Positions 33,185-34,174 of a stretch of 64,000 bases of DNA are shown one piece after another (within the stretch, counting starts at the first letter, position 1; every line of letters begins with the position of its first letter). The notes beneath the pieces are model-generated. The model had not been told where the DNA came from and made no database searches. It was given only the letters and a program-made list of their open reading frames with translations. The position numbers were made by a program, and so were the translations under genes. The DNA comes from Pirellulales bacterium (lineage in GTDB: Bacteria; Planctomycetota; Planctomycetia; Pirellulales; JAICIG01), in the NCBI GenBank assembly GCA_040901675.1, contig JBBDYJ010000014.1:39305-103304 (forward strand). Direction: 5' to 3'.

Positions 33185-33257
33185 ACATCCTCGCCAGGAA
33201 TCGAACCTGGTCCTCGACCTTCGCAGAGTCGTATGCGTGTCCGGCACACCCCGAGGA
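33185..33257 (-). tRNA. tRNA-Arg-like (anticodon GCG), G8 instead of U8
   Basis: Acceptor GTCCTCG/CGAGGAT; AC stem CGACT/GGTCG with loop CTGCGAA; architecture mirrors the neighbouring Arg(CCG). Confidence 0.5.
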
Positions 33258-33291
33258 CAATTTGATCGCGTCTGCCTGCGCCCTCTTGGGA

Positions 33292-33363
33292 GTATCCCGA
33301 CCTGGAGTCGAACCAGGACTTCGACCTTCGGAGGGTCGCGTGCGCTCCACTACACCATCGAGA
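33292..33363 (-). tRNA. tRNA-Arg (anticodon CCG)
   Basis: D-stem GTGT/GCAC; AC stem CGACC/GGTCG with loop CTCCGAA. Confidence 0.7.
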
Positions 33364-33378
33364 CAATTTCGTTCCAAA

Positions 33379-33452
33379 GAGCCGACGACTGGATTTGCAC
33401 CAGCATCGTCCGGTTTACAAAACCGGCGCCTTTCTTGTTCGAGCCACGTCGG
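33379..33452 (-). tRNA. tRNA-Thr (anticodon TGT); T-loop TGCAAAT (G55)
   Basis: Perfect acceptor GCCGACG/CGTCGGC; loop TTTGTAA. Confidence 0.65.
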
Positions 33453-33456
33453 CAAA

Positions 33457-33526
33457 GCACGGACGCGAGGAGTCGAACCCCGTGCGGCGGTTTTGGAGGC
33501 CGCCTGCTCACCCGGGAGCACGCCCG
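33457..33526 (-). tRNA. tRNA-Trp (anticodon CCA), short D-arm (70 nt)
   Basis: Loop CTCCAAA identical to the canonical tRNA-Trp loop; T-loop GGTTCGACT. Confidence 0.6.
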
Positions 33527-33587
33527 TACGATACGAACGACTGGGGCACGCTAACGCTTTGCCCCAGGCACCCGCGCTACTTTCGAA

Positions 33588-33674
33588 GCGGAAGGCAAGG
33601 GACTCGAACCCTCATCTCCACGTGGGAGAACCGCCTTAGCAAAGCGGCCCGGCCAACCGTATCCGGCTACCTTC
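33588..33674 (-). tRNA. tRNA-Ser (anticodon GCT), class II
   Basis: Long D-loop; loop TTGCTAA; long variable arm (CTCCCACGTGGAG); discriminator G. Confidence 0.75.
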
Positions 33675-33697
33675 CAAACAATCGCCAAGCGTCATCA

Positions 33698-33768
33698 GTG
33701 GACCGCCGGGGAGTCGAACCCCGATCTCCTGGTTGCAGGCCAGGTGTCTTCCCGTTGGACCAGCAGCC
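33698..33768 (-). tRNA. tRNA-Ala (anticodon TGC)
   Basis: G3:U70 identity pair present; loop CCTGCAA; discriminator A. Confidence 0.75.
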
Positions 33769-33783
33769 CTTGTTTTTCTTGCA

Positions 33784-33854
33784 GAGGTCCGTCCGGGAAT
33801 TGAACCCGGCCCTCCTCCTTACCGAGGAGGCGTGCCGCCGAAACACCTACAGAC
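33784..33854 (-). tRNA. tRNA-Thr-like (anticodon GGT) with C33
   Basis: Acceptor GGTCTGT/ACGGACC; AC stem CCTCC/GGAGG with loop TCGGTAA; T-loop GGTTCAATT. Confidence 0.5.
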
Positions 33855-33868
33855 CGAACTTTTTCAAA

Positions 33869-33941
33869 ATGATCCCGGATGGAATCGAACCATCGCTTTC
33901 CTGGTTGTCATCCAGGCGTCTTTGCCGTTGGACCACGGGAT
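33869..33941 (-). tRNA. tRNA-Val (anticodon GAC)
   Basis: Perfect acceptor GATCCCG/CGGGATC; loop ATGACAA; 3-bp D-stem like the Ala tRNA. Confidence 0.7.
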
Positions 33942-33953
33942 CCAGCGTCCGCA

Positions 33954-34029
33954 GTGGCCGAGGTGGGAGTCGAACCCACAGAGTCACGAGGCCCTCGACC
34001 TCGTCGCTTTTCCCGTTTGCGTACCCGGC
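33954..34029 (-). tRNA. tRNA-like gene, anticodon ambiguous (GAG reading, C33, short variable arm)
   Basis: Acceptor GGCCGGG/CTCGGCC; AC stem CGAGG/CCTCG with loop TCGAGGG; T-loop GGTTCGACT. Confidence 0.4.
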
Positions 34030-34105
34030 CGTTGAAAAAGGAGGAAGGAGGAAGGAGGAATCAGAACAGGATTCCTTCAGTCACGTCCCTTCCAATTTTT
34101 GTTAA

Positions 34106-34174
34106 GTTGCAGGTCCGGGAGTCGCACCCGGCGTGCGGAGCTTATGAGGCTCCACTGAGCACTGGCTCACCTGC
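34106..34174 (-). tRNA. tRNA(CAT)-like (Met/Ile2 type), 69 nt, C1:A72 mismatch, truncated D-arm, T-loop TGCGACT
   Basis: AC stem GGAGC/GCTCC with loop CTCATAA. Confidence 0.4.

Follow-up and report, generated by a model that had tools for sequence, protein, structure and literature searches.

Two kinds of described gene cluster come close to the long array of transfer RNA (tRNA) genes that we analysed in a Pirellulales bacterium, within a stretch of 64,000 nucleotides (nt) of GenBank assembly GCA_040901675.1 (contig JBBDYJ010000014.1, positions 39,305 to 103,304 of the forward strand; this whole stretch is called the window, and its coordinates are counted from its first letter). One of them is the L-array, a long supernumerary tRNA array, exemplified by the trn operon of Anabaena and Nostoc, for which Puerto-Galan and Vioque, writing in 2012, are reportedly the source. 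This operon is carried on Anabaena/Nostoc plasmids (Tran et al. 2016, PMC4758250; Santamaria-Gomez et al. 2021, PMC8421152), and Planctomycetes are listed among the phyla with long L-arrays (PMC8421152; PMC4758250). Of the 26 tRNAs in the Anabaena array, 23 carry amino acids in vivo; the operon stays silent as long as translation is unimpaired, and a sponge role has been proposed for its tRNAs (PMC8421152). The other is the “degenerate tRNA gene cluster” of planctomycetes, with 2-28 low-scoring tRNA genes per cluster, whose members were described as partially degraded, fast-evolving, probably dispensable and probably acquired by horizontal gene transfer (Kim et al. 2016, PLoS One, S2 Text, PMC4807772). 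The same study reported significantly lower Cove scores for the cluster tRNAs and planctomycete tRNA counts of 46 to 96, named as an exception a canonical-looking tRNA-Ile(UAU) that was reported only in these clusters, and found a separate canonical Trp-tuf-Thr-Gly-Tyr-Thr cluster in all planctomycetes examined (PMC4807772).

The window array is the same object as these planctomycete clusters, and its Ile-TAT unit matches the Ile(UAU) exception. In contrast to the view of Kim et al., unit order, stems, odd bases and identity elements are all conserved here in at least 28 genomes, and the links of the array to an SPFH gene, an HNH endonuclease gene and a leader are not mentioned in Kim et al. 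2016. With 20 units in 4.6 kb when a unit with the anticodon CAT is counted (29879-34484, all on the minus strand), the array also falls within the L-array definition of Tran et al. 2016 (at least 20 tRNA genes, at least 2 per kb, single orientation). The planctomycete array is like L-arrays in its dozens of packed same-strand tRNA genes for nearly all amino acids, in its patchy distribution and in scores lower than those of housekeeping tRNAs. An HNH endonuclease of the same family is found in the arrays of relatives and beside a Nostoc array, although the window copy lacks it. That Nostoc array, on plasmid pC052_G, shares further traits: the same D-arm layout in its short Leu tRNAs, the T-loop UGCAACU combined with a GG-less D-loop, and CAT units mismatched at 1:72. 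The planctomycete array differs from the Anabaena/Nostoc ones in that its order is specific to Planctomycetota and kept across families, that it is chromosomal, that downstream it always has a tRNA-like element, some 450 nt of leader and the SPFH gene, and that a terminator/anti-terminator leader stands in front of it where Anabaena has promoter direct repeats. Because the 60-70% identity between planctomycete and Nostoc units is no better than between any tRNAs and thus uninformative, we file the two under the same kind without a claim of common descent.

The unusual units of the window are intact members of a long planctomycete tRNA array, and we consider it probable (roughly two chances in three) that they serve in it as a conditional alternative set. 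The array reaches about 40 units and is always followed directly by one SPFH gene, and in most relatives it has an HNH gene within it; the window holds a reduced and rearranged copy of about 20 units in two clusters, with no HNH gene. Judged from alignments of orthologous units, the odd nucleotides are inherited, specific to each unit, and maintained together with cloverleaf pairing and identity elements. The units that a first-pass annotation of the window had flagged are the following, with scores on the covariance model RF00005.

Arg-GCG: 33258 to 33186, minus strand; G8 at 33251, anticodon GCG, 37.7 bits.
Thr-GGT: 33855 to 33785 (feature row 33784..33855), minus strand; C33 at 33824, A8, 41.2 bits.
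Leu-GAG: 34030 to 33955 (feature row 33954..34030, 77 nt), minus strand; C33 at 33997, 41.4 bits.
CAT unit, type 1: 34175 to 34107, 69 nt, minus strand; C1.A72 mismatch, mini D-arm, T-loop UGCGACU, A73.
Thr-TGT: 33379..33453, minus strand; T-loop UGCAAAU, G55 at 33398, D-loop without GG, 47.8 bits.
Trp-CCA: 33457..33527, 71 nt, minus strand; single linker nucleotide (U8), A1:U72, G73.

The features that had been picked out from the letters alone are all present: G8 in Arg-GCG, C33 in Thr-GGT and in the GAG-reading unit, G55 in Thr-TGT, the 6-nt D-loop of Trp, and the 69-nt CAT unit with its C1:A72 mismatch, vestigial D-arm and T-loop UGCGACU; some coordinates, for example those of the CAT unit, had been one base off. 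The possibility then raised that the units would score as standard tRNAs once alignment errors were corrected did not hold. Arg-GCG, Thr-GGT, Leu-GAG and Thr-TGT stay at 37.7-47.8 bits, which is above the RF00005 gathering score of 29 bits but low, and the CAT unit was missed by ARAGORN, gave no RF00005 match at E ≤ 10, and had as its best Rfam match the Tymovirus tRNA-like element (RF00233) at 34.5 bits against a gathering score of 40. Trp and the neighbouring Ser-GCT unit scored best on the tRNA-Sec model (33.8 and 35.1 bits). Under the covariance model array units mostly reach 30-65 bits, and non-array tRNAs in related loci 58-72 bits.

The rule of U8 and U33 is broken by G8 in Arg-GCG, by A8 in Thr-GGT (present, and unmentioned in the first-pass annotation), by the lack of nucleotides 8/9 in the CAT unit and by C33 in Leu-GAG and Thr-GGT. 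The elbow formed by G18G19 and U54-U55-C56 is absent from Thr-TGT and the CAT unit, and the other flagged units keep UUCGA. Arg-GCG has an otherwise standard geometry, with the D-stem GUGU/GCAU including a G10.U25 wobble. The anticodon loops of Thr-GGT and Leu-GAG read UCGGUAA and UCGAGGG, respectively; Leu-GAG keeps a D-stem of 3 base pairs (bp), an 11-nt D-loop and A73, and has a short variable region (4-7 nt in 24 orthologues) without the long arm of bacterial tRNA-Leu. The Trp unit combines a 4-bp D-stem (GCUC/GAGC) with the loop CCGGGU.

The CAT unit has a D-arm of 4 bp and the tetraloop CAGU, the anticodon stem GGAGC/GCUCC and G55. A mismatch at 1:72 is the main formylation determinant of initiator tRNA, and the unit had been called initiator-like; this holds for the unpaired 1:72, which it shares with tRNA-fMet along with the CAU anticodon, and fails for the rest. 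Unlike tRNA-fMet, it has no three consecutive G:C pairs at 29-31:39-41 (the window has A29:U41; across the family 29:41 is G:C in 13 of 21 copies, 30:40 is G:C in 21 of 21, and 31:39 is mostly C:G), its D-arm is reduced, it carries G55, and it has no match to RF00005. Its D-arm (GCCAGUGC) and T-arm (GGGUGCRACUCCC) motifs align to the consensus of RF00233, and this model alignment suggests the same type of compact elbow. The unit differs from RF00233 in scoring below the gathering threshold, in its covarying 7-bp acceptor helix without a 3' pseudoknot, in reading CAU rather than CAC, and in its place on a bacterial chromosome.

In all, 80 genomic loci encoding relatives of the SPFH protein were fetched and labelled with L-numbers (L002, L006 and so on). 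The nearest relatives of the protein are all from Planctomycetota, mostly Pirellulales, with at most 80% identity. Directly upstream of the SPFH gene, 28 of the 80 loci carry 17-40 tRNA genes in one conserved order, which is also that of the window: Phe, Glu-TTC, Pro, Ile-GAT, Lys-TTT, Ile-TAT, Lys-CTT, Thr-CGT, Gly, Pro-CGG, Asn, Ser, then Gly, Gln, Gln, Ser, Val, Leu, Asp, Leu-CAA, Tyr, Glu-CTC, Leu-CAG, CAT, then Leu-GAG, Val-GAC, Thr-GGT, Ala, Ala, Ser-GCT, Arg-TCT, His, an embedded gene, and then Trp, Thr-TGT, Arg three to four times, Arg-GCG, Cys, a last tRNA-like unit and the SPFH gene. Full-size copies cover all 20 amino acids. Complete genomes with the module include those of the cultured Adhaeretor mobilis HG15A2 (CP036263) and Lacipirellula limnantheis I41 (CP036339) and the metagenome-assembled chromosomes OY970228 and JAXGXG010000001. 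Among SPFH loci whose upstream sequence extends over the full 10 kb, at least 20 hold only 0-5 units.

The embedded gene, found in about 26 loci between His-GTG and Trp-CCA, encodes a 198-amino-acid HNH endonuclease (for example L002 4358-4954, L013 8074-8670, L046 and L053; frameshifted in L050), and there is none in the window copy. Across the loci no conserved flanking genes were found beyond the SPFH gene. Since the flanks vary while array and SPFH gene stay linked, the conserved module consists of the array (with the HNH gene), the last unit, the spacer and the SPFH gene. Loci L006 and L013 lie 50 kb apart on one contig (CAWDRV010000004.1), so that one genome holds two complete array, HNH and SPFH modules; with the variable flanks, this arrangement points to duplication or movement of the whole module. 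Homologues of the HNH protein at 35-40% identity occur on Nostoc, Acaryochloris and mycobacterial plasmids and in many tRNA-rich phages. One (36.8% identity) lies 200 nt upstream of the 28-tRNA L-array on Nostoc sp. C052 plasmid pC052_G, another inside the tRNA array of Synechococcus phage S-CBWM1, and others beside tRNA arrays on the IMG/VR contigs L092 and L093. No tRNA genes were seen within 6 kb of the homologue on Acaryochloris pREB6, so members of the HNH family also occur away from arrays. PADLOC returned no defence-system match for the SPFH protein or for a 232-amino-acid open reading frame (ORF) that follows it in the window, and only generic HNH matches for the HNH protein.

In the window, ARAGORN reported 19 array tRNA genes on the minus strand in two clusters between 29879 and 34484, and outside the array a canonical Leu-TAG with a long arm at 14281. 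Cluster A (34484 to 32993) reads Glu-TTC, Gln-TTG, Asp-GTC, the CAT unit, Leu-GAG, Val-GAC, Thr-GGT, Ala-TGC, Ser-GCT, Trp, Thr-TGT, Arg-CCG, Arg-GCG and a last unit called “Arg-ACG”; downstream follow a 441-nt spacer, the SPFH/Band-7 gene (32551 to 31451) and the 232-amino-acid ORF, which has no family match. Cluster B (30513 to 29879) reads Ile-GAT, Lys-TTT, Ile-TAT, Pro-CGG, Tyr-GTA, Glu-CTC. The two clusters have no anticodon in common, their contents complement each other, and both keep the canonical relative order in an interleaving way, which is why we regard the window copy as reduced and rearranged.

Orthologues of each flagged unit were aligned and their base pairs counted; controls in which the pairing partners were slid gave 19-57% pairing. 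Copies of CAT type 1, present in about 28 loci, were collected with a purpose-built covariance model. The results per unit were as follows.

Arg-GCG: 37 sequences, 99.9% paired, compensatory changes in 12 of 21 pairs.
Leu-GAG: 24 sequences, 99.8% paired, compensatory changes in 12 of 21 pairs.
Thr-GGT: 14 sequences, 98.6% paired, compensatory changes in 4 of 21 pairs.
CAT type 1: 21 sequences, 93.7% paired, compensatory changes in 13 of 22 pairs.
Trp: 32 sequences, 96.6% paired, compensatory changes in 14 of 21 pairs.

All stem pairs of the window copies are standard except CAT 1:72 and Trp 31:39, the latter being unpaired in 18 of the 32 family members, which keep A1:U72 and G73. The odd bases recur with the stems. 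Position 8 of Arg-GCG is G in 34 of 37 sequences, A in the other 3 and never U. C33 is present in 23 of 24 aligned Leu-GAG copies and is nearly fixed there; in Thr-GGT all 14 sequences have A8, and position 33 is divided between C (5 sequences) and U (9 sequences), so that C33 is a clade variant only. In CAT type 1 the 1:72 position is unpaired in 20 of 21 copies (C.A, C.U, C.C, U.U, U.C), the remaining acceptor pairs 2-7 pair and covary, and the mini D-arm is 98.8% paired. Each odd feature thus returns in the orthologous unit of 14-37 other genomes, which puts it far beyond chance.

Changes in the D-loop and the T-loop are coupled. Every Thr-TGT unit with G55 (18 sequences) lacks GG in the D-loop, and every one with U55 (5 sequences) has it (Fisher p = 3e-5, uncorrected for phylogeny); the CAT subtypes behave likewise, with CAGU and G55 in type 1 and AGGU and U55 in type 2. 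Across the array units C33 is found in Leu-GAG (24 of 25), Glu-CTC (16/23), Ala-GGC (8/14), Pro-GGG (4/5), Thr-CGT (6/13) and Val-TAC (8/20), and a base other than U at position 8 in Arg-GCG, Arg-TCG, Asn, Cys, Lys-CTT, Thr-GGT and Tyr; the deviations are widespread yet specific to particular units. Taken from the alignments, the pattern fits RNAs selected for a tRNA fold with an alternative elbow, unlike pseudogenes.

The discriminator base and key acceptor pairs agree with the amino acid predicted from the anticodon across the array units. G3:U70 is present in 40 of 44 Ala units, U73 in 40 of 42 Cys, G73 in all Trp (37/37) and Asp (27/27) units, in 65 of 68 Ser and, with U1:A72, in 22 of 23 Asn units; C73 is found in 33 of 34 His units, most with an encoded G at -1, C1:G72 with A73 in 35 of 39 Pro units, U73 in 35 of 45 Gly units, and A73 in the Lys, Phe, Val, Leu, Tyr and Met units. 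The roles of these bases as identity determinants are textbook knowledge from E. coli. Because the elements are retained, we argue that the units would be charged by the normal synthetases. Anticodon loops are likewise similar among orthologues, with an identity of 0.91-0.97 in Arg-GCG, Cys, Trp and Leu-GAG. In the Tyr-GTA unit of the window (29968-30048, minus strand) the first pair is C1:G72, where 14 of 15 orthologues have G1:C72, both sides having changed; the 1:72 pair of tRNA-Tyr separates bacterial from archaeal/eukaryotic recognition by tyrosyl-tRNA synthetase.

Hairpin insertions of 22-26 nt (CGACCA...GGUGCCCG) were observed in both orientations and were nearly confined to array regions, with five copies in L006, four in L007, three in L013, two in L021, single copies in about 8 other loci and none in the window. 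They split Leu-GAG in L006, Thr-TGT and Arg units in L021, and Phe in L006 and L013, and in sequence they look like a miniature insertion element that targets arrays.

Upstream of the array lies a conserved leader (34590-34765, minus strand) with the following features.

Small ORF: 34653..34763, minus strand; 36 amino acids (MTLWRPSSLQERTAAGLPAEQDTMLASSLTPQRLRL), TGA at 34655-34653, putative leader peptide.
Attenuator-like leader: 34590..34656, minus strand; segment 1 at 34656-34644 (GUGACGCUGGGCC).
Terminator: 5' arm 34620-34608, 3' arm 34603-34596, T-tract 34595-34590, minus strand; conserved hairpin.
Tandem repeat: 34509..34605, minus strand; 18-20 nt unit (GGCACCGGGUUUUUUGUUGG) repeated 5.2 times just ahead of the first tRNA.

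The terminator (GGCCCGGUGUCAC-loop-GACRCCGGGCC-U6) is a strong intrinsic one that ends the leader and is common to 20 loci and the window; compensatory changes are seen in 5 of its 13 pairs, and it was the only structure that RNAalifold recovered from 194 nt of upstream leader, beyond which the region aligns poorly. In L019 and L021 the first tRNA begins about 10 nt past the U-tract, so that the array could be transcribed only by read-through. An upstream motif (UUGCGCUUGUGACGCUGGCC; segment 1, which includes the UGA of the ORF) can pair with the 5' arm of the terminator, and across 16 loci this anti-terminator helix is 87% paired, where slid controls reach 23-41%; in the window the alternative helix of segment 1 and 5' arm is the minimum-free-energy and centroid structure. 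The frame closed by the conserved TGA is open for at least 43 codons in 20 of 20 loci, against 7-8 codons in some loci for the other two frames, and the C-terminus ...PLRL* of the leader ORF recurs in many other loci. The tandem repeat amplifies the 3' arm and T-tract of the terminator and is specific to the window; no consistent tandem repeats comparable to the Anabaena promoter direct repeats were found upstream of the arrays of other loci, and we therefore regard it as local. Leader, small ORF and terminator together make a candidate translation-sensing attenuator, as read from these conserved segments.

Under the reading we prefer, the units would be transcribed as one operon, processed, and aminoacylated by the normal synthetases of the host, and the array would serve as an alternative (backup or stress) tRNA set rather than the housekeeping set. 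Expression would probably be conditional, given the conserved intrinsic terminator immediately before the first tRNA. A ribosome at the stop codon of the leader ORF would mask the anti-terminator segment; when translation of the leader is impaired, the segment would be free to pair with the 5' arm of the terminator, and transcription would read through into the array. By analogy, this model would fit the phenotype of the Anabaena array, which is induced when translation is impaired.

The array ends in an element that behaves differently from the units before it.

Last tRNA-like unit, called “Arg-ACG”: 32993..33066, minus strand; conserved body, hypervariable anticodon, degenerate acceptor top.
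Spacer: 32552..32992, minus strand; 441 nt, non-coding, with three nucleotide blocks conserved in many loci.
SPFH/Band-7 (stomatin-like) gene: 31451..32551, minus strand; always follows the array.

The last unit is one orthologous scaffold (also at L047 9440-9516, L009 9437-9510 and L046 9440-9512), with a pairwise identity of 0.95 in the D-arm and 0.85 in the T-arm and with an anticodon stem that is usually CCAGA/UCUGG. Its 7-nt loop takes 31 distinct sequences in 33 genomes, with 22 “anticodons”, A34 in 15 of 33, and Y32, R37 and A38 kept; other units reach 0.91-0.97 in loop identity, this one 0.46. No constraint is seen on the top three acceptor pairs, and in some loci the Rfam match covers only model positions 5-66. 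A complement co-varying with the loop was not found in the downstream leader (mean longest 4.23, against a null of 4.40). The spacer has no conserved ORF, being conserved at the nucleotide but not at the protein level, and contains a terminator-like hairpin (32643-32627) 76 nt before the SPFH start codon; from this conservation it may be a structured leader of the SPFH gene.

On the remodelled cores and anticodon loops one can speculate that they make the tRNAs independent of some modifications (at positions 8, 33 and 55) or resistant to nucleases that target tRNAs. Phage tRNAs with altered anticodon loops escape host anticodon nucleases and are clustered, often with homing HNH endonucleases. 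The planctomycete array, unlike such phage tRNAs, is chromosomal and conserved phylum-wide, and no nuclease partner for the array was identified. A more elaborate proposal, which we regard as doubtful, is a four-part stress device: leader-controlled read-through would open an alternative tRNA set, the remodelled cores and C33 loops would make it modification-independent or toxin-resistant, CAT type 1 would act as an alternative initiator with an elbow like that of turnip yellow mosaic virus (TYMV), and the last unit with its hypervariable anticodon would be a processing signal or decoy controlling the SPFH gene.

The first-pass annotation had offered decaying duplicates or specialised tRNAs as explanations. 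Decay, as in the view of Kim et al. 2016, would mean that the array is a horizontally acquired dispensable cluster whose odd bases are random damage. Array units do score below canonical tRNAs (as also in PMC4807772), the array is reduced or absent in many genomes, the HNH gene and some half of the units are gone from the window copy, and units of relatives are disrupted by the hairpin insertions. Random damage, however, would not be expected to place identical odd bases at identical positions in the orthologues of many genomes, to leave stems 94-100% paired with compensatory changes in more than half of the pairs in 4 of 5 families, to keep identity elements, or to couple D-loop with T-loop changes; in the window itself no stem is broken beyond the family-shared CAT 1:72 and Trp 31:39. 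We consider decay very unlikely, and specialisation survives only as a description of a conserved, structurally divergent second set. If instead the array were the ordinary tRNA gene organisation of these bacteria, and the odd features lineage-wide planctomycete quirks, this would agree with the coverage of all 20 amino acids in full-size copies, with the intact identity elements, with the position among chromosomal housekeeping genes such as ispH in the window, and with the report of tRNA-Ile(UAU) only in clusters (PMC4807772). A housekeeping set would however hardly shrink to 0-5 units at many related SPFH loci or stand directly behind a terminator, and canonical high-scoring tRNAs exist outside arrays: L016 has an Arg-CCG of 71.7 bits 5 kb from the Arg-CCG unit of its own array (49.7 bits), the window has the long-arm Leu-TAG, and the separate Trp-tuf-Thr-Gly-Tyr-Thr cluster has been reported (PMC4807772). 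On this balance a housekeeping role is quite unlikely.

A role outside translation, in which tRNA-cleaving toxins or anticodon nucleases would meet the units as decoys or sponges, or the units would be donors in chemistry that depends on aminoacyl-tRNA, would account for the clustering of the deviations at U33, position 8 and position 55, which are sites for the ribosome, nucleases and modification enzymes, and for a last unit that keeps a tRNA body with a free-running anticodon and a degenerate acceptor top; a sponge role has also been proposed for the Anabaena array (PMC8421152). The joint conservation of identity elements and anticodons, which a mere decoy would not need, and the charging of Anabaena array tRNAs in vivo (PMC8421152) speak against it, and we judge it unlikely, though less so for the last unit. 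That the array is cargo from a prophage or phage-derived island and serves phage translation seems highly improbable: no phage genes flank the module in the window or the loci, the flanks vary among genomes while array and SPFH gene remain linked, G+C content in the window is even, and by DNA similarity phage and plasmid records match the array only through single generic tRNAs. The HNH homologues in the S-CBWM1 tRNA array and beside arrays on L092 and L093 point towards phages, as does a complete module on the IMG/VR contig L081, although among ten ORFs tested on that contig none has a phage-type Pfam domain.

Several points weigh against an intact and conditionally used array, the reading that we prefer. 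The tools that gathered most units, ARAGORN or a covariance model, select for foldable sequences and so inflate the pairing; a sequence-only search with nhmmer added few orthologues, some of them broken by insertions, which indicates decay in some genomes; and the shuffle controls ignore phylogeny. In a translating tRNA, C33, G8 and G55 should by textbook knowledge impair the work on the ribosome or the tertiary fold. The window itself has a single canonical tRNA gene, the Leu-TAG at 14281. In the leader, covariation of the anti-terminator is weak (2 pairs changed on both sides) and the controls only marginal, the terminator of the window is short and the anti-terminator dominates, and no promoter was found by a sigma-70 scan of 29600-35100. 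What planctomycete arrays do is throughout something that we infer from sequence.

Further units of the window array are the following.

Glu-TTC, Gln-TTG and Asp-GTC units: 34484-34410, 34409-34338 and 34316-34241, minus strand; RF00005 scores of 55.9-58.5 bits.
Val-GAC unit: 33870..33942, minus strand; found by ARAGORN, 61.6 bits.
Ala-TGC unit: 33769-33698, minus strand; carries G3:U70.
Ser-GCT unit: 33675-33588, minus strand; long arm, G73.
Arg-CCG unit: 33292..33364, minus strand; found by ARAGORN, 53.5 bits.
Ile-TAT unit of cluster B: 30269-30195, minus strand; 58.2 bits.
Cluster B, six units: 29879..30513, minus strand; found by ARAGORN and with covariance scores.

Between the CAT and Leu-GAG units, AAGGAGG is repeated 3.3 times on the plus strand (34038-34060), which on the transcribed strand is a CCUCC-rich tract resembling an anti-Shine-Dalgarno sequence. 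The neighbours of the array are ordinary chromosomal genes (ispH, a radical S-adenosylmethionine enzyme and a helix-turn-helix regulator), and the G+C content is about 64%. An identical 17-nt palindrome, ACTTTGCAATGCAAAGT, occurs at 34976-34992 and 36070-36086, where the copies precede two plus-strand gene groups (a membrane protein with a helix-turn-helix regulator, and ispH), and from its symmetry and placement it is likely an operator site. Elsewhere in the window a cobalamin riboswitch (61682-61866, minus strand, 85.8 bits) and a match to group II intron domain D1-D4 (45397-45511, minus strand, 77.5 bits) were detected.

Selection on the “degenerate” features, the fixed linkage to an SPFH gene, the leader and the hypervariable last unit are apparently absent from the literature searched. 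Long tRNA arrays are common and poorly understood, and those of planctomycetes have been written off as degraded. As their “defects” prove to be conserved, with compensatory changes and intact identity elements, these arrays offer a natural collection of workable deviations from the universal tRNA core, including bases other than U at position 8, C33, G55, a mini D-arm and a tRNA-Leu without the long arm. The leader terminator and the small ORF would be concrete control elements, and the array, if our reading is true, would be a second, conditional tRNA set in bacteria other than cyanobacteria.

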